This document shows positions 2,807 through 45,941 of a DNA stretch of 64,000 nucleotides, piece by piece. The notes under the pieces are model-generated. The model searched no databases. It saw nothing but the letters and a program-made list of their open reading frames with translations, and had not been told where the DNA came from. This DNA comes from Escherichia phage vB_EcoM_RZ: the sequence record MW598459, one strand, 5' to 3'. Each line of letters begins with the position of its first letter. The stretch's first letter is position 1. A program made the translations under genes and the position numbers.

Positions 2807-3265
2807 TTAGATATAAATCACTTTTGTGCTAATTTTTCCTTCCAGACGATTAGAGTTAACAAACGCCATACGACAACACATGGTCGGAGACTTCCCAGGA
2901 ATAGCGGGGTTAACTGTCATTCCTAACCACAGGTTCTTGTCCGTGATTTCCAGACGAAGTGGACGGTAGTTCACATTCGGGTCAATTTGTGCTTCAACTT
3001 CCGGGAGTGGTTTCATCTCCAAGAATTCAACGATTTCTTTTACATGTGGTGTGATTTTTCCAAACAAGTCAAAAACATATTGTTCATCAATTTCACGTTG
3101 GATTGCACGGTCCAACAGGTGTGGACTGTACTTAATGAAGAATGCCTCAAGGCCTGCTTCTTTACAAGCCTTGTTGATAGCATTATTAATTTTGAGGAAC
3201 TCCGTTTCAAAAATGCGACGAAGTTTATTGCGGCGAATGTAAACACTTGAATCGATAGTAGTCAT
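2807..3265 (-). CDS. hypothetical protein
   Basis: Start placed at internal ATG (MTTIDSS) with SD AAGGAG; the longer track ORF would run through the upstream promoter. Confidence 0.5.
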   Translation of the reverse strand: MTTIDSSVYIRRNKLRRIFETEFLKINNAINKACKEAGLEAFFIKYSPHLLDRAIQREIDEQYVFDLFGKITPHVKEIVEFLEMKPLPEVEAQIDPNVNYRPLRLEITDKNLWLGMTVNPAIPGKSPTMCCRMAFVNSNRLEGKISTKVIYI

Positions 3266-3292
3266 GATTATCTCCTTTTGTTTGATGGGATA

Positions 3293-3321
3293 ATCATAAC
3301 TCATTTCAATCTGCTTGTACA

Positions 3322-3322
<1 letters not shown>
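3293..3322 (-). promoter_or_regulatory. T4-type early promoter cassette (-35 GTGTAC, 17 bp, -10 TTATGAT, leader TATCCCATCAAAC)
   Basis: Minus-strand reading GTGTAC-N17-TTATGAT-TATCCCATCAAACAAAAGGAG-ATG; same architecture as the other cassettes listed. Confidence 0.5.
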
Positions 3323-3901
<579 letters not shown>

Positions 3902-18369: not shown

Positions 18370-19046
18370 TATATTACCTTATTAATTTTATCAAAAAGTT
18401 CTTCGAGTGTGCCATCGTTTTTAATAACAATGTCACTAGCTAGTGGTGGAAGTCCAGCTTCCGTAATGTGTGTATCAGTAGAATGATTTGCTTCATCGCG
18501 TTCTACAAAGATTATTGTAGCACCCATCGCCCGAAGCGAATCAAGTTCGTTCTTTTGGCGAACATCTGGGACAACGTAATATTTATATCCAGAATAGAGG
18601 TTGTCAAGATAGTCGCATGCAAAAGTTTTAATCCAAAACATGCTGTCGAACTCTGTACAAACAATATCAGTTCCAAGGGTCTGCATGAAACGTCTAACTG
18701 TCCAGGGCTCAACATTATTTAGTGTGTGAAATTCAATGATTTTACGAACCATATCTGGATTCGGAAGGTCAAGATTATATTGTTGTTTCAACCATTCAAG
18801 AGCATCAACCAGAAGAATATAAGCTTCGGTGTTGTTCATTATCAAGGTTTTTTCACGGTCATAACCTTGTCCATCAAAATTTTCCAGGGTCAAATTGTGT
18901 GGCAGGTCTTGACGAATCCACGCGTTATAAAGCGCTTCTTTAATCGGACCAGCAAGCTGCCACTTTGTTCCGTTTTGACTAATAACATAATCAGCAGTCG
19001 TATCTTTACCACTGCGTTTTTTACCCACAATCGCAATTAATTTCAT
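18369..19046 (-). CDS. 1: dNMP kinase
   Basis: 225 aa; GKKRSGKDTTADYV, YQLAGPIK, VRRFMQTLGTD, MGATIIFVER, DTHITEAGLP match T4 gp1. Confidence 0.9.
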
Positions 19047-19642
19047 ACGTTTCTCATAGATGGATGCATTGACTTAGACCTGATTTCCTGTTGCATTGCC
19101 GCATTACTATCAATCTGTGGTCTACCTTCTATTATTATACCATCAATTTCTACAGCAAAAGACTTAAAGTTAAAAGTTGCTGTTGCAATGATAGCCGGGT
19201 CAGAATCTTCTTTATATGAATACTGAATCTCTGACAGGTCGGACGGCCATGCTCCATAGTAATGGATTGACATGACAATTTTGTCCTTGTTGTTATCTAA
19301 GATATGAAGCGTGACCGCTTCGGGACGACCCTTCGGATGCCATGCTTTTGATTCGTGTGTGATGTAGTTGTTGAGCGAGAGCATCCATTTATAGATATCA
19401 AGCCATGCTCTTAGGTCTTTGTCACACAGAAAGTTAACAATCAGCGGGTCGAATTCTATTGTACTACCAGGAAGACTGGAGCGATTTATACCTTGTGTTC
19501 CGCCCGGGACATCCGTCACAGGAATGTGAACCCCTGGGAGGGTAACGTCTTGAACGTTTAGTTTAAAGGTCTGTGTGAGGTTTGAATCGCTCACCTCTAA
19601 TATAAAGTTAGTCGTGTTAGTTTGATTATATAAACCTGACAT
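19043..19642 (-). CDS. 3: tail completion / sheath stabilizer protein gp3
   Basis: Between genes 1 and 2 as in T4; start set at MSGLYNQ with SD AGGTG (track ORF extends further upstream). Confidence 0.6.
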   Translation of the reverse strand: MSGLYNQTNTTNFILEVSDSNLTQTFKLNVQDVTLPGVHIPVTDVPGGTQGINRSSLPGSTIEFDPLIVNFLCDKDLRAWLDIYKWMLSLNNYITHESKAWHPKGRPEAVTLHILDNNKDKIVMSIHYYGAWPSDLSEIQYSYKEDSDPAIIATATFNFKSFAVEIDGIIIEGRPQIDSNAAMQQEIRSKSMHPSMRNV

Positions 19643-19653
19643 AGTGCACCTTG

Positions 19654-19681
19654 TTTGCTTTAAAACAATCAGTGTTATAAT
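19654..19681 (+). promoter_or_regulatory. consensus T4 middle (MotA-dependent) promoter, antisense to gene 2
   Basis: Plus strand TTTGCTTTA (MotA box) - 13 bp - TATAAT - GGTTCTAGACC, in the gp3/gp2 intergenic gap and pointing into gene 2. Confidence 0.45.
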
Positions 19682-19727
19682 GGTTCTAGACCTTTTGTCC
19701 TTACCAATAACACTGACCGATAATAGA

Positions 19728-20561
19728 TTATGAATTTCTCCATACTTTCTGTGAAGAAAATCTTTTGCCTTTTGAAAAAAACTGCTGAAGGGGGAGTAAT
19801 ACCACATTTGCCCAGTCACTGGGCTTGATTTCAGTAATAGTACCTTTTATATTGCCAGGTATATATGCTTTAATCATCTGGTCAGCCCCTTTAAATCCCT
19901 TCACCTTTGACCAATCAATCTTCAGATGAGTCTTGTTCGTAATCGTAGGAGTATTAGCATATTGCTTAAGAAGTTCCTCAAGGAACTCTTGACGTGCCTT
20001 CGGTGGAATATAGTGCAAGTTCAAACCATACATCAAATTGTGCTTACCTAGCCCAAGATAAATGATTAACGGATATTTGTCCCAGTACGGAAGAGTATCC
20101 TTATGCTTTGCATCATAGATATAAGCATAAATCTTACCCGGTTGAGGTTTAGCCGTTACGTGGCCACGAACTGATTTCTTAATTGTCTCAGCGAACCATC
20201 TGGCAGATTTGGTGTTGCTTGCTGCGCCTTCGTTAGCAATCTTATCTCTTATGCTCTTTCTAAAGCTATTCACCATTATCAGCTGGCGTTCAGCCTTCGT
20301 AAGTTTACCGGCGGGTTTCTTTTTGAGCTTGGATACTTTATAAGCAGTCTGAATTCTCGAATGATATCTTGACATGCTTTTGGTAAAGGTCGAATAGTTG
20401 ATTCCTTTCTCTTCAGCAAACTTCTTCGAGGTCATTCCCTTTTCTTTTGCTGTATAAAATTCAACCCCTATTTCAACCCATTGTTGTTCGGATTTACTGG
20501 GTTTTGGACCTGGTTTATCTACAGATTCATTGATAAATGTAAAAATACTCATCCTTTCCAT
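19728..20561 (-). CDS. 2: DNA end protector protein gp2
   Basis: 277 aa (T4 gp2 274 aa), basic, between gene 3 and gene 4 region. Confidence 0.7.
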
Positions 20562-21277
20562 CCTTCTATAAAATTAATCAAATCATTTTTTAAATAGTAT
20601 GGTAAGGTTTCTGTATAGCCATCGACCATAATATCTTTATTCAAATAACCTCTGTCTTTTATATATAATACAGATATTGCGGATTCTAACATTTTGGCTT
20701 GTGCACCCAGTTCAAATTCTCGATAATATAATTTGGAACTAATGCATTTGGAAAAATGATTTTGCTGCCACAATCTAAAATCATGATTGGAAGTTATACC
20801 ATACTTTAAAGCAGTTCCGCCCGGATATTCTATTTTATTAACATAAACAATAGCAGGTTTCTTTGCGTTAAATCCTTTGTGACAACAGTTTGGACATCCT
20901 TTGTTTTTTGTTGTAAAGTTGTTTAGATTTGTAATCCAACTGGTTGAACATGTAGAACACTTTATATAGGCTTTTGATTTTGTAAAAGTTGAATATGTGG
21001 TATCCCATTTATCAAAACTATACAATGGATTCACGGAATTTATTCTTGTGATTGCATCTAATTCAGATATTAATTTGCTTTCACCATAAGAACGTTTTAA
21101 ATTACAATTAGAACACCAACTTTTTGTTTTTAACTTATGCTTTAAAACAGTTGCTTTGTATTTGCATGTTTCTTCACATATAAAGCACTTTACAAATATC
21201 AAAGTTTTTGATTTATTAAAATCGCCTTGTCCCACTATCTCGCCATTTGTGATGTTAAAATCTGAACAATCGTACAT
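20549..21277 (-). CDS. inserted Zn-ribbon protein with C-terminal GIY-YIG-like nuclease motifs
   Basis: 242 aa; CxxC pairs ([22 protein letters not shown]); then AIVYV-x11-KYGIT, downstream R and E; no gene at this position in T4. Confidence 0.5.
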
Positions 21278-21729
21278 TATAAACCCTTATATCCCATTTT
21301 TCTAAGCGCATCTTCAGTAATCAATCTAAACTGGATGCCCATTTTATCGGCTACGGCCTGCGCTGCTTTCCACTTATCCTTGTTAACGGCCCAAGTGTAC
21401 ATTTCGTTCATAAACCTCTTCTTACTTGCGGCGGTCGTATTGACTGGTTTTGCCGGCGGCCTTGTTTCCTTTTTGGGTTTGACCTCAAAGAAAAACTGTT
21501 GTCCATTTGAGAATTTCACCCACATATCCATGTAATATCTGCGTTTTTTACCATCCGCATTACTGAAATATGGAATAATTACGGTCTCAGAGCCCCATTG
21601 TATCACATCTGGATGATTATCTAACCAATTAAATACAAATTTTTCCCAATTTGACCTGTATGTGATTTTCTTCCAGTCTCCTTTGTACTTGGCAACGTTT
21701 TTTGGCTGCCACTTCCCGGAGTATGCCAT
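21277..21729 (-). CDS. 4: head completion protein gp4
   Basis: 150 aa (T4 gp4 150 aa); divergent from gene 53; late promoter just upstream. Confidence 0.75.
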   Translation of the reverse strand: MAYSGKWQPKNVAKYKGDWKKITYRSNWEKFVFNWLDNHPDVIQWGSETVIIPYFSNADGKKRRYYMDMWVKFSNGQQFFFEVKPKKETRPPAKPVNTTAASKKRFMNEMYTWAVNKDKWKAAQAVADKMGIQFRLITEDALRKMGYKGL

Positions 21730-21757
21730 ATAGCCTCCTAATAAATATTGATATACT

Positions 21758-21765
21758 TATTTATA
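21758..21765 (-). promoter_or_regulatory. late promoter (TATAAATA) for gene 4
   Basis: Plus TATTTATA = minus TATAAATA about 30 nt upstream of gp4 ATG. Confidence 0.5.
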
Positions 21766-21777
21766 AATGGAGGCTTT

Positions 21778-22380
21778 ATGCTTTTTTCATTTTTTAACCC
21801 AATTGATTATGATGCAAAAACAATCAGAAAAAACTCGGCATCATTAACGAAAGAAGACGTCTTAAGCATCCCAATGACTGACATCTTCAGAAACTATCGT
21901 GCCTATTTTGATAAGGTTGCGGTTAATTATACACCAAAAACATATTACATCGCTGGAGCTCCGAGACCTGAAGAACTTGCATACCAGCTCTATGGAAACA
22001 CGCAACTCTATTGGGTTCTCCTTATGCTTAATAATATCTATGACCCTTATTATGGTTGGATATGTTCACAAGAATCATCGTATCAGGCATCAATTCAACG
22101 CTATTCAAATATAGGTGGTAATCAGGTTCTTTATCATGTAAATGAAGATGGTGAAAAATTCTGGAATCTTGTTTCTTATCCTGATAATCCGTACACCTGG
22201 TATGATAAAGGTGATAAGAATAAATTGTACCCACAATATGAAGGTCCATTGGCTGCAGTAGATATCTATGAAGATGCTATTCGCAAAAATGAATATAAAC
22301 GAGAAATAAAGATAATCGACCCTAATGATATCGAATCATTTATTTCGGCATTAATCCGTGAGATGGAGAAGGCATTATGA
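21778..22380 (+). CDS. 53: baseplate wedge protein gp53
   Basis: Start at ATG after SD AATGGAGG; 200 aa; position before gene 5. Confidence 0.75.
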   Translation: MLFSFFNPIDYDAKTIRKNSASLTKEDVLSIPMTDIFRNYRAYFDKVAVNYTPKTYYIAGAPRPEELAYQLYGNTQLYWVLLMLNNIYDPYYGWICSQESSYQASIQRYSNIGGNQVLYHVNEDGEKFWNLVSYPDNPYTWYDKGDKNKLYPQYEGPLAAVDIYEDAIRKNEYKREIKIIDPNDIESFISALIREMEKAL

Positions 22381-24119
22381 TTAATATGTCAGATAATGTA
22401 AGTTGGTTCGTCGGTGTTGTCGAAGACCGAATGGACCCACTTCAACAAGGCCGAGTCCGTGTCCGTGTATGGGGTATGCATCCATATGAGAAATCGCAAG
22501 GGCCTGTAAAAGGTATCAGAACTGAAGACCTGCCATGGATGTCTGTACTGATGCCAACATCATCTGCATCAGTTTCTGGTATTCAAACTGCAATGACCGG
22601 TATGGTGCCAGGGACTCAAGTATATGGTCACTTTTTAGACAAGTGGAAACTCAACGGGCTTGTTATTGGTACGTATGGTTCAGCCTCAAGACAAAAAGCA
22701 AATCCCAACGAAGGCTTCTCTGACCCCACAGGACAATATCCACTTTATGTAGGTAATGATGCTGCTGCGCTCAACCGTGGCGGTGAGGTTGGTTATGATG
22801 CAACTTCGAACGTAATTCAGGATGCAAACACCGATGTAGGTATTAACCCTGATGGCCTTGATTTGAGTCAAGTTAAGCCAGATGATAATCCTAATTTCAC
22901 AATTGAAAATATGCTTCACCGTGATGAAGGTCTTCGTTTGAAAGTATATTGGGACACCGAAGGTTATCCTACTATAGGTATAGGACACTTAATTGCACCA
23001 CAACCTATTAGAGATATGAATCAGATAAACAAAATATTATCTAATCAAATAGGCCGTGAAGTTAAAGGTAACCCTGGTGCAATATCAATGGACGAGGCTT
23101 CTAAGTTATTCCAGGAAGACCTTAAAAAAGTTCAAAACGATATAGGCCGGCATAGTGTTGTAGGCCCGGTTTACAATAAAGAAAACCGTTCGAGACAAAT
23201 GGCTCTTGAAAACATGGCTTTCCAAATGGGATTGGGTGGGCTTGCTAAATTTAAAACGATGCTCGCTGCAATGTTAGCCGGAGATTATAAGAAAGCATTT
23301 GATGCCGCCCGTGATTCTGTATGGTTTAACCAAACTAAAGGCCGTGCATCAAGGGTATCAATGATTATCCTCACAGGTAATATGGAATCATATGGTATTA
23401 TGGCCCCTAAAGAAAGGTCATTTAAAGGGCGTTCATATAGGATGATTCAAACCTTTGCAGCCCCTGCAAATTCTGACCCAGCCGACCCGTGGACTCCAGA
23501 AGATACGAGGATTTTGTTTAAAGAGCCAGAATCCAGTTACAAGGGCGAATATCCTTATGTGCAGACAATGCAAACTGAAGGCGGGCATGTTCAGGAATTC
23601 GATAACACCCCTGGACAAGAACGTTATCGACTGATTCACCCGACCGGTTCCTATGAGGAAGTTGCACCAGATGGTCGTAAGACTTCGAAGACAGTGGCTG
23701 ATGGATATTATATGACCCAGGGCGATTCGAGTACTTACGTTGGCGGTAATAATAAAGTCAACGTTGGTGGTGATGAAACCTATTATAATATGGCTAACGT
23801 TCGTCGTCAGACCGATGGAAACGAAAGCATTCATATTCGTGGGAATGAAACCAAAACCATTGAAGGTGACGGTACAATTATTGTCAAAGGTAATGTAAGT
23901 ATTCTGGTCGAAGGTAATGCTGAAATAACTGTTAAAGGTGACGCAAAAACTCTTGTCGAAGGTAACCATGATTATACGGTAAATGGTAATGTCAAATGGT
24001 CCGTTAATGGAAACGTTGATATGACCGTGGCTGGCAATTGGTCCGAAACAATGTCAACAATGAGTTCTATTGCATCTGGTCAATATACTATTGATGGTTC
24101 GAGGATTGACATTGGCTAA
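22377..24119 (+). CDS. 5: baseplate hub + tail lysozyme gp5
   Basis: 580 aa; N-terminal OB domain, lysozyme domain (DEGLRLKVYWDTEGYPTIGIGHLI) and C-terminal beta-helix repeats (VEGNAEITVKGDAKTLVEGN). Confidence 0.95.
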   Translation: MINMSDNVSWFVGVVEDRMDPLQQGRVRVRVWGMHPYEKSQGPVKGIRTEDLPWMSVLMPTSSASVSGIQTAMTGMVPGTQVYGHFLDKWKLNGLVIGTYGSASRQKANPNEGFSDPTGQYPLYVGNDAAALNRGGEVGYDATSNVIQDANTDVGINPDGLDLSQVKPDDNPNFTIENMLHRDEGLRLKVYWDTEGYPTIGIGHLIAPQPIRDMNQINKILSNQIGREVKGNPGAISMDEASKLFQEDLKKVQNDIGRHSVVGPVYNKENRSRQMALENMAFQMGLGGLAKFKTMLAAMLAGDYKKAFDAARDSVWFNQTKGRASRVSMIILTGNMESYGIMAPKERSFKGRSYRMIQTFAAPANSDPADPWTPEDTRILFKEPESSYKGEYPYVQTMQTEGGHVQEFDNTPGQERYRLIHPTGSYEEVAPDGRKTSKTVADGYYMTQGDSSTYVGGNNKVNVGGDETYYNMANVRRQTDGNESIHIRGNETKTIEGDGTIIVKGNVSILVEGNAEITVKGDAKTLVEGNHDYTVNGNVKWSVNGNVDMTVAGNWSETMSTMSSIASGQYTIDGSRIDIG

Positions 24120-43288: not shown

Positions 43289-45268
43289 ATGGCTTTATTA
43301 TCTCCGGGCATTGAGCTCAAAGAAACAACGGTCCAAAGCACTGTTGTTCGTAACGCGACGGGTCGTGCGGCGCTGGTTGGTAAATTCCAGTGGGGCCCAG
43401 CTTTCCAGGTAACTCAGATTACAAACGAAGTTGAACTTGTTGATTTGTTTGGTGGTCCGAATAATGAAACAGCAGATTACTTTATGAGTGGGATGAACTT
43501 CCTGCAATATGGTAATGACCTCCGTACTGTACGTGTTGTTAACCGTGACGAAGCTAAAAACGCATCCCCGATTGCTGGCAATATTGAAACTACCATTGTA
43601 ACTGCTGGTACAAACTATGCTGTCGGTGATGTTATTCAGGTTAAACACAACCAGACTGTTGTTGAACCAGCTGGCCGTGTGACCAAGGTCGATGTTGATG
43701 GTAAAATTCTGGCAATCTTTATTCCTACCAATAAGATTATTGCATTTGCTAAAACTATTAATCAGTATCCTAATTTGGGCAGTGCATGGACTGCAGAAGT
43801 TACGACCACTTCTTCCGGTGTATCTGGTACCATCACTGTCGGGAAAATTGTTACCGATTCTGGCATTCTGTTGACTGAAGCAGAAAACAGTGAAGAAGCA
43901 ATTACTTCTCTGGAATTCCAGGCATCATTGGCAAAATATGCAATGCCGGGTGTTGTTGCTCTTTATCCTGGTGAAATTGGTTCGACTCTTGAAGTTGAAA
44001 TCGTATCCAAAGCTGAATTTGAAAAAGGCGCAACTGCAAATCTGGATATTTTCCCCGGTGGTGGTTCCCGCGCTTCTATAGCTCGTGCAGTGTTTAACTA
44101 TGGTCCTCAGACCGAAAACCAATATGCAATTATCGTTCGCCGCGATGGTGCAATCGTCGAAAACGTTGTTTTGTCTACTAAGCAGGGCGAAAAAGATGTT
44201 TATGGTAATAACATTTACCTGGATGACTACTTTGCAAAAGGTACTTCCAACTACATCTATGCAACATCTCGCAACTGGCCTGTAGGCTTCAGTGGTATCA
44301 TCAATCTGTCTGGTGGTATTTCTGCAAACGATAAGATTACCGCTGGTGATTTGATGCAAGGTTGGGACCTGTTCGCTGACCGTGAAGCTCTGCATATCAA
44401 CCTGCTTATCGCTGGTGCTTGTGCTGGTGAAGGTGATGCGACCGCTTCCACTGTTCAGAAGCACGTAGTTTCTATTGCTGACGAACGTCAGGATTGCTTG
44501 GCATTCATTTCCCCGCCGAAAGGTCTGTTGGTTAACGTTCCTCTGACCCGTGCAGTGGATAACCTGATTGACTGGCGTACAGGTGCTGGTGCATTTGATA
44601 CTGATAACATGAATATCAGCACGACTTATGCAGCGATTGATGGCAACTATAAATATCAGTATGATAAATATAACGACGTTAACCGTTGGGTTCCTCTGGC
44701 AGCTGATATGGCTGGACTGTGTGCTCGTACTGATGATGTTTCTCAGCCTTGGATGTCTCCGGCAGGTTATAATCGTGGTCAGATTCTGAACGTTCTGAAA
44801 TTGGCTGTTGAACCACGTCAGACCCAACGTGACCGCATGTATCAGGAAGCTATCAACCCGGTTGTTGGTTTCGCAGGTGGTGATGGTTTTGTTCTGTATG
44901 GTGATAAGACTGCAACTAAAGTTCCATCTCCGATGGACCATATCAACGTTCGCCGTCTTACGAATATGCTGAAGAAAAATATCGGTGACGCATCCAAATA
45001 TAAACTGTTTGAGCTTAACGATAACTTCACTCGTGCATCATTCCGTATGGAAACTTCTCAATACTTGGATGGTATTCGTGCGCTCGGTGGCATTTATGAA
45101 GGTCGTGTGGTTTGTGATACTACTAACAACACCCCGGCGGTTATTGACCGAAATGAGTTTGTTGCTAGCATTTATTATAAACCTGCCCGCAGTATTAACT
45201 ATATACAGCTTAATTTCGTTGCCACTAGCACTGGTGCTGATTTCGATGAGCTGATTGGGCCACAATAA
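43289..45268 (+). CDS. 18: tail sheath protein gp18
   Basis: 659 aa (T4 gp18 659 aa); MALLSPGIELKETT... N-terminus. Confidence 0.95.
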   Translation: MALLSPGIELKETTVQSTVVRNATGRAALVGKFQWGPAFQVTQITNEVELVDLFGGPNNETADYFMSGMNFLQYGNDLRTVRVVNRDEAKNASPIAGNIETTIVTAGTNYAVGDVIQVKHNQTVVEPAGRVTKVDVDGKILAIFIPTNKIIAFAKTINQYPNLGSAWTAEVTTTSSGVSGTITVGKIVTDSGILLTEAENSEEAITSLEFQASLAKYAMPGVVALYPGEIGSTLEVEIVSKAEFEKGATANLDIFPGGGSRASIARAVFNYGPQTENQYAIIVRRDGAIVENVVLSTKQGEKDVYGNNIYLDDYFAKGTSNYIYATSRNWPVGFSGIINLSGGISANDKITAGDLMQGWDLFADREALHINLLIAGACAGEGDATASTVQKHVVSIADERQDCLAFISPPKGLLVNVPLTRAVDNLIDWRTGAGAFDTDNMNISTTYAAIDGNYKYQYDKYNDVNRWVPLAADMAGLCARTDDVSQPWMSPAGYNRGQILNVLKLAVEPRQTQRDRMYQEAINPVVGFAGGDGFVLYGDKTATKVPSPMDHINVRRLTNMLKKNIGDASKYKLFELNDNFTRASFRMETSQYLDGIRALGGIYEGRVVCDTTNNTPAVIDRNEFVASIYYKPARSINYIQLNFVATSTGADFDELIGPQ

Positions 45269-45335: not shown

Positions 45336-45941
45336 GTGATTATTTCTAAATTTGTTGAAGTTAAAATACGAAATCATGCAAAATGGTGGAGTGAATACTT
45401 AGGTAAAACTCTAACATACCATGATGTAATTTCTGTTCCAGTTGAACAAATGCCAGATAATAGTAATAAAAAGATTGAGTGTTCCTGTGATGAATGTGGG
45501 GTACATTTTGAGCGCGGCATTCAGCTGCTTCGTCGTGTTGATAAACATTTATGTAAAGCATGTTCAAGAAAAGATATTGGACAAAAGAATGTTATTGCGC
45601 AAGGTGGTGTACCAAGACCATGGCAACGCGGTGAAAAACATCATAGCTGGAAGGGTAATAAGCGCGAATTCTATTTGTATGCTCAACGCGTTCATGCATT
45701 GACAAGAGCAAAACATCTAAAGAATATTTGGTCAACATGGGAAAATGCAGATAAGATAGGAAAATGTGGAGAAGATGGTGCATATCAACTTGACCACAAA
45801 GTTTCTATTGCATATGGATTTTATAATCACATACCAGAGACTGTTATCGCTTCGCTCAACAATTTAGAAATAGTCACTTGGGAATCTAATAGGTCCAAAG
45901 GAAAATCAAATAGTATTGACTTATGGGATATATTATCCTGA
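45336..45941 (+). CDS. HNH homing endonuclease inserted between genes 18 and 19 (GTG start inferred)
   Basis: HNH motif YQLDHKVSIAYGF..NLEIVTWESNRSKG plus Cys clusters CSCDECG..CKAC; SD AAGGA 7 nt before GTG. Confidence 0.7.
   Translation: MIISKFVEVKIRNHAKWWSEYLGKTLTYHDVISVPVEQMPDNSNKKIECSCDECGVHFERGIQLLRRVDKHLCKACSRKDIGQKNVIAQGGVPRPWQRGEKHHSWKGNKREFYLYAQRVHALTRAKHLKNIWSTWENADKIGKCGEDGAYQLDHKVSIAYGFYNHIPETVIASLNNLEIVTWESNRSKGKSNSIDLWDILS

Follow-up and report, generated by a model that had tools for sequence, protein, structure and literature searches.

A T5orf172/CapR-class gene, probably a free-standing homing endonuclease gene, between genes 4 and 2 of Escherichia phage vB_EcoM_RZ

What is an additional gene doing between genes 4 and 2 of a T-even-type coliphage? 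In the stretch of Escherichia phage vB_EcoM_RZ analysed here (64,000 nucleotides of sequence record MW598459, hereafter the window), an open reading frame (ORF) of 242 amino acids occupies positions 20549..21277 of the minus strand, where an earlier sequence-only reading had located it between genes 2 and 4 and had suggested a homing endonuclease. We confirmed this position, and we put the probability at about 0.8 that the ORF is a free-standing homing endonuclease gene (HEG) of the T5orf172/CapR class, whose product cuts HEG-less relatives and which is copied by repair together with a particular allele of gene 4, termed allele A. This reading is supported by the domain architecture, the predicted fold, the conserved motifs, purifying selection, patchy presence, the linkage to allele A, sharp block boundaries and an excess conservation of the gene 4-ORF cassette; what we infer is that the protein acts as a nuclease, where it cuts, when it is expressed and that it homes. 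The ORF belongs to a class that has already been described; the finding is real, and the earlier reading was largely right in essence.

Family and fold of the encoded protein

The T5orf172/CapR class of putative phage HEGs (Netter et al. 2021, PMC8096241; Barth, Dunham & Seed 2023, PMC10448857) combines N-terminal, often repeated CapR/DUF723/DUF4379 Cys4 fingers with a C-terminal T5orf172 domain, a GIY-YIG subfamily. Its genes are abundant in ICP1, in T5-like phages and in some Aeromonas and Vibrio phages, and the class also occurs in Plateaulake-like and jumbo phages; the genes vary in presence, lie beside essential genes and at the boundaries of allele exchanges, and can be swapped with HEGs of other classes (PMC8096241, PMC10448857). 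The ORF shows the same domain order and genomic behaviour as these HEGs, including T5.141 and the RB49 ORF239c-like genes. It has N-terminal CapR/DUF4379 Cys4 modules, a C-terminal T5orf172 domain and the conserved GIY-YIG catalytic residues, and the gene itself is variably present, sits beside essential genes and marks the boundary of an allele exchange. It differs in its host, which is a Gaprivervirus (Tevenvirinae) and a true relative of the T-even phages, in a divergence that leaves it without a match to any GIY-YIG-clan Pfam model, and in its small size, with only two fingers in 242 amino acids. T4 itself has no T5orf172 genes, a point stressed by the authors of the class description (PMC8096241, PMC10448857). 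Homologs of the ORF were found in other T4-like phages, JSE and Phi1, and in T5 (T5.141, annotated 'similar to RB49ORF239C').

The paired CxxC motifs and the AIVYV-x11-KYGIT motif with downstream R and E are present exactly as the sequence-only reading had described them. The cysteine pairs are C31/C34 with C55/C58 and C107/C110 with C128/C131; the C-terminal motif, AIVY145V-x11-KY159G160IT, is followed by R168 and E198. Judged from motif order and spacing, Y145, Y159, R168 and E198 would correspond to Y6, Y17, R27 and E75 of I-TevI. The first finger unit (amino acids ~20-62, with C31, C34, C55 and C58; 21092..21220, minus strand) gave no significant Pfam match in the query itself. The second unit (amino acids ~86-135, with C107, C110, C128 and C131; 20873..21022, minus strand), a CapR/DUF4379 treble clef that is presumed to bind DNA, matched DUF4379 from Pfam over amino acids 100-133 (E=4.6e-4) with 20.8 bits, under the cut-off of 24.5. 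Homologs show two separate CapR/DUF4379 stretches, and the family profile matches the DUF4379 protein 6sga_Fd among PDB sequences. The two units had earlier been called Zn-ribbons; two Cys4 units are indeed there, but they are treble-clef CapR/DUF4379 fingers, the DNA-binding modules of the T5orf172/CapR class, and not ribbons. A recent internal duplication was also considered as their origin and was rejected, since BLASTP of unit 1 against unit 2 was non-significant (E=2).

The nuclease domain (amino acids ~139-238, with Y145, Y159-G160, R168, E198, G220 and E223-T224; 20564..20863, minus strand) was assigned through homologs and structure, since no nuclease family came up when the query, whole or as its isolated C-terminal half, was scanned directly against Pfam and NCBIfam. 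In PHROGs the ORF falls in phrog_681, 'endonuclease' (E=2.5e-29). An exhaustive HMMER search, on which the family size rests, recovered 1,097 cluster representatives at E<=1e-3, many of them with several repeated zinc-finger stretches; a word-indexed protein search returned two proteins only. In an alignment of 29 family members of similar length, C128, C131, Y145, K158, G160, R168, G191, E198, G220, E223 and T224 are invariant, and C55 and C58 are nearly so. Because the motif residues are invariant or nearly invariant columns in a family of this size, the motifs are not a product of chance. Scanned singly, the aligned members matched DUF4379 (25/29), CapR (21/29), MUG113 (15/29), T5orf172 (8/29) and canonical GIY-YIG (4/29); one of them, P0094, exceeded the curated cut-offs for both GIY-YIG (24.4 bits) and T5orf172 (23.4 bits) over its residues 130-214, equivalent to ~143-227 of the query. 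The ortholog in Yersinia phage MHG19 (69% identity) scored above the cut-offs for the CapR homology domain (30.6 bits; cut-off 24.2) and DUF4379 (27.2 bits; cut-off 24.5), and gave 19.5 bits for T5orf172 over amino acids 144-210 (cut-off 20) and 15 bits for MUG113. Profile searches thus recovered the zinc fingers (DUF4379, CapR) and the nuclease families (GIY-YIG, T5orf172, MUG113) through the ortholog and the aligned homologs, not through the query itself.

An AlphaFold2 model built from the same alignment was confident (mean pLDDT 90.4; 94-98 in the C-terminal domain and ~90 in the first finger unit). It comprises two beta-beta-beta-alpha zinc-finger units, a helical linker and a beta-beta-alpha-beta-alpha C-terminal domain. 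The ranked matches given for the model include a UPF0213 GIY-YIG protein at rank 5 and the GIY-YIG restriction enzyme PD-T4-3 at rank 7, and a Foldseek search of viral models (BFVD) returned neighbours named CapR-homology, T5 Orf172, GIY-YIG or homing endonuclease. When the full-length model was compared with the PDB, Foldseek returned nothing but noise, mostly kinases (best E 0.42), probably due to the three loosely packed domains of the model (pTM 0.58). Phmmer and profile searches against PDB sequences found no nuclease, only zinc-finger matches and a non-significant match to HhaI. The latter (E=0.14, amino acids 128-192), the sole phmmer match, would point to a C-terminal nuclease of another fold, such as PD-(D/E)XK. 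No PD-(D/E)XK fold appeared among the structural matches, and the ORF shows neither the core fold nor the motif of that group; an HhaI-like identity was dismissed on these grounds, and we regard a nuclease of another fold as very improbable. Taken together, the homolog profiles and the model indirectly place amino acids 139-238 in the GIY-YIG clan.

Within the GIY-YIG nucleases, the ORF is a lineage separate from Seg and I-TevI, and not an odd Seg. SegA-G and I-TevI begin with the nuclease, and their DNA-binding modules (NUMOD3/helix-turn-helix or others) follow C-terminally. In the ORF this order is reversed, the DNA-binding modules are CapR/DUF4379 zinc fingers, and no NUMOD3 match was obtained. 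The sequence-only reading had therefore seen the motif and its C-terminal position correctly, but its word 'atypical' does not hold, as a C-terminal nuclease is the rule in the T5orf172/CapR class. SLX1/HIGLE, eukaryotic structure-specific repair GIY-YIG nucleases with a RING/PHD partner, resemble the ORF in fold only (16-19% identity).

A variably occupied junction

Gene 4 lies upstream of the ORF and gene 2 downstream, all three on the minus strand. The ATG start of the ORF overlaps the gene 4 stop codon at 21277 (TAATG), and its TGA stop overlaps by 4 nucleotides (ATGA) the gp2 ATG at 20552 (MSIF..., as annotated in Escherichia phage DK-13 and relatives). The 13 nucleotides of overlap with gp2 that had been noted before arise only if gp2 is given its longest possible ORF, with the start at 20561. 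Gene 2 thus runs on the minus strand from 20552 or 20561 to 19728 (PHROG 429, 'DNA end protector', E=2.5e-78). The AT-richness that had been noticed by eye is real: the ORF has a GC content of 0.298, genes 4 and 2 reach 0.408 and 0.389, the window averages 0.406 (sd 0.029), and no other 729-nucleotide stretch in the 64-kb window is as GC-poor (0.2nd percentile).

The region is 98.5% identical to DK-13 (Straboviridae, Tevenvirinae, Gaprivervirus). We compared the junction in 32 records (~27 distinct phages) that match at 90% or more. The ORF is carried by only two of these close relatives, DK-13 and Shigella phage fPSFA (100% amino acid identity), and genes 4 and 2 abut in ~22 of the 27. This empty state was read directly in UPEC01 and VR7 and was inferred in ~20 further genomes from a matching span that is 731 nucleotides shorter; genes 2 and 4 are thus adjacent elsewhere, as the earlier reading had stated for T4. 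In P8, P479 and PSD2001 an unrelated gene of 215 amino acids takes the same position, with the same ATG start and the same GGAAAGGATGA end. It is of the Seg type, with NUMOD3 at 27.4 bits (above cut-off) and GIY-YIG and SegE_GIY-YIG at 21.1 bits each (sub-threshold), and its nucleotide identity to the ORF is ~50%, which is the random level, with no detectable similarity. The much more distant MHG19 has its 242-amino-acid ortholog between genes 4 and 2 as well. Uniform presence at the locus is thereby refuted, and with a nuclease fold recovered and most junctions uninterrupted, the reading of the ORF as a homing endonuclease is supported.

The same distribution bears on whether the protein serves the phage, as a domesticated or repurposed T5orf172 protein acting as a CapR-like regulator, an Odn-like weapon or a helper in DNA-end or head completion. 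The class offers precedents for domestication in CapR, a satellite protein that acts as a repressor, and Odn, an anti-satellite nuclease of ICP1 (PMC8096241, PMC10448857). A phage function would also fit the ortholog at the same site in the distant MHG19, the location of the ORF within a late structural operon, with no separate promoter, its position between gp4, which has a TnsA-like nuclease fold, and gp2, the DNA end protector, and a purifying selection close to that of its essential neighbours (dN 0.23 vs 0.25-0.26). However, ~22 of the 27 relatives have no gene at this position and three have an unrelated Seg-type enzyme, so that the position is not bound to any function on which the phage depends. 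The ORF has kept the full set of GIY-YIG motif residues, which argues against a pure DNA binder, and the linkage to a foreign gene 4 allele and the excess conservation of the cassette, described below, are predictions of homing. We consider domestication unlikely; a 'nuclease with another role', the alternative left by the sequence-only reading, gained no positive support.

Gene 4 allele A and the mobility of the cassette

Comparison with the empty-site genome UPEC01 delimits the exchanged block. Identity is 96-100% through gene 2 up to ~20564, and 100% identity resumes at 21729 and continues through the 4/53 promoter region and gene 53. The interval between these points holds the 729-nucleotide ORF and an allele of gene 4 that is mismatched at 122 of 453 nucleotides. 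This allele A of gene 4 (head completion; 21277..21729, minus strand; PHROG 218, 'head closure', E=3e-61) would be the co-inherited cargo of the cassette. It has ~71% nucleotide identity to the allele of empty-site genomes (allele B), compared with 95-99% for genes 2 and 53. The two alleles are saturated at synonymous sites (pS 0.87; dN 0.17), so that allele A stands as far off as a gene of a different genus. Its product, gp4, matches the Pfam family Tn7_TnsA-like_N (PF08722; E=1.9e-22), indicating a TnsA-like endonuclease fold, and is labelled 'head completion nuclease' in some records.

Allele A (at least 98% amino acid identity) was found only in DK-13, fPSFA, P8, P479 and PSD2001, five genomes whose 4|2 junction is occupied by an endonuclease gene. 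Among 2,235 gp4 records, the one that comes next has at most 80% amino acid identity to allele A; with nothing at 80-98% among these records, no donor lineage was found. A third gene 4 allele (77-79% nucleotide identity to allele B and ~70% to allele A) occurs in UPEC07 and phage 212, with a HEG on the other side of gene 4. Compared with DK-13, the ORF and gene 4 differ at 2 of 1,177 nucleotides (99.8% identity) and the flanks at 66 of 3,139 (97.9%; Fisher p=2.6e-7); compared with fPSFA, no mismatch was found in 724 nucleotides of the ORF, and the flanks are 90-98% identical. By these comparisons, the cassette is of more recent date than its surroundings. Allele A of gp4 is a clean case of an essential-gene allele for which linkage to selfish nuclease genes fully explains the distribution.

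The downstream edge of the insert retains a copy of the ancestral gene 4 3' end, AGGATGGAAAGGATGA (20549..20566, minus strand), which now encodes the C-terminus of the ORF and provides the stop/start overlap with gp2; in UPEC01 and VR7, gene 4 ends with these nucleotides. Because the last 16 nucleotides of the ORF are the original gene 4 3' end of empty-site genomes, the ORF ends in ...GWKG*, like gp4 in those genomes; gene 4 of the carrier genomes ends differently, in ...MGYKGL*. Through this retained end, the insert would preserve the expression of gp2. In MHG19, an exact 18-nucleotide direct repeat, AGGATGGAAAGGATAATG, is found on both sides of the cassette (~2484-2501 and 3212-3229 of the compared stretch), and the inserted gene and gp2 therefore share an equal ribosome-binding region and stop/start overlap.

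Several points weigh against a homing endonuclease. In addition to the Pfam and NCBIfam scans that gave no nuclease family, no GIY-YIG-clan Pfam model matched the query even at E<=10, and the homolog T5.141 likewise has no such match. Homing of the putative T5orf172 HEGs of ICP1 was without experimental demonstration as of 2023, and nuclease activity has been reported for one HEG-derived relative only (PMC10448857); a literature search from 2023 on turned up no later test of T5orf172 HEG homing. The MHG19 ortholog has 72% nucleotide identity and its flanking genes ~70%, which fits long vertical residence as well as transfer. The cassette could also have spread by ordinary recombination in its conserved flanks, with no nuclease required.

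In the last case the ORF would be a passive passenger or a decaying relic, with an inactive nuclease, and the block of gene 4 and ORF would have been moved by ordinary homologous recombination between co-infecting T-even phages. The block boundaries fall in highly conserved, recombination-prone sequence (the gp2 start and the 4/53 late-promoter region), the query scores below Pfam thresholds, T-even genomes are known mosaics, and decay of HEGs is common (Barth et al., PMC10448857). Against this stand the intact frame of 242 amino acids in all four known copies, with no frameshifted copy seen among those found, and the retention of every invariant family residue; dN/dS between the window and MHG19 copies is ~0.15, alike in the DNA-binding and nuclease halves. 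We rate an inactive passenger as slightly less probable than even domestication, and an active HEG remains the reading that we prefer.

Predicted expression, homing and neighbouring endonuclease genes

A motif scan placed a T4-type late promoter motif, TATAAATA, upstream of gene 4 (21758..21765, minus strand), the likely source of a gene 4-ORF-gene 2 transcript; this is its sole occurrence on either strand in 19000-22400. A promoter motif inside or just upstream of the ORF was not found, nor was an RNA hairpin masking the ribosome-binding site at the ORF start (z=+1.2); such hairpins are known for some T4 HEGs. Transcription would be late and shared with genes 4 and 2, and translation of the ORF may be coupled to the gene 4 stop codon.

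In the homing scheme that we propose, the two treble-clef zinc fingers would bind a specific DNA site, and the C-terminal T5orf172 domain, of GIY-YIG fold, would cut nearby by means of Y145, Y159, R168 and E198. During mixed infection with a HEG-less relative, the enzyme would cleave the DNA of that phage at or close to the 4|2 junction or gene 4, and repair by recombination with the carrier genome would then bring the HEG, together with the adjacent resistant gene 4 allele, into the recipient. Such 'intronless homing' with co-conversion has been demonstrated for SegF and SegG of T4. More speculatively, the enzyme may specifically cut the common gene 4 allele of competing Gapriverviruses, so that the HEG and the resistant allele would form a poison/antidote-like cassette that excludes rivals, and T5orf172- and Seg-type nucleases would have been recruited independently to the same allele; we hold this extension to be possible but doubtful.

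Bioinformatic work on vibriophage ICP1 and T5-like phages defined the T5orf172/CapR HEG class; the present copy is in a T-even-type coliphage. Natural recipients exist in the empty-site phages VR20, SP18 and UPEC01 and in the genomes with a Seg-type gene at the same position; cleavage, target site and co-conversion of an essential gene are thus directly testable in a classical phage-cross system. If the poison/antidote-like reading is true, the locus would provide a natural and genetically tractable E. coli system with ready empty-site and alternative-occupant partners, in which a T5orf172 enzyme could be shown by experiment, for the first time, to home and to exclude markers. Standard annotation as 'hypothetical protein' and Pfam thresholds miss such genes.

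The neighbourhood of the junction is a HEG hotspot. A MobB-like HNH gene lies between genes 3 and 2 in VR7, P479, fPSFA and UPEC07, and a Seg-like gene separates genes 53 and 5 in P479. UPEC07 (3136-3843 of the compared stretch) and phage 212 (2477-3184) have a 'homing endonuclease' of 235 amino acids between genes 4 and 53; the annotation of phage 212 gives gene 4 in a shortened form of 357 nucleotides and marks gene 53 merely as 'similar to'. At the 3' end of gene 2 in the window (19752-19818, minus strand), 17 of 67 nucleotides are mismatched to UPEC01, compared with 8 in ~750 nucleotides in the rest of the gene. This patch adjoins the 2|3 junction, where both the window and UPEC01 are without the MobB-like HNH gene, and has the look of a scar of co-conversion, or of a patch of another allele, left by that HEG. 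The longest ORF of gene 3 (19043-19819, minus strand; GTG start, 258 amino acids) reaches ~90 nucleotides into the 3' end of gene 2; since gp3 is annotated as 600 nucleotides only in relatives, the mechanical ORF call overextends gene 3.

A family-profile search of the window found no paralog of the ORF, only a weak zinc-finger match to a different, HNH-like ORF. Directly after a tail-sheath-like ORF of 659 amino acids (43289-45268), an ORF of 201 amino acids (45336-45941, plus strand) has an N-terminal Cys4 zinc finger (weak DUF4379 match, E=0.1) and, as read by eye, a C-terminal HNH-like motif (QLDH...N...N). It is probably a further free-standing HEG, of the Mob-like HNH type.
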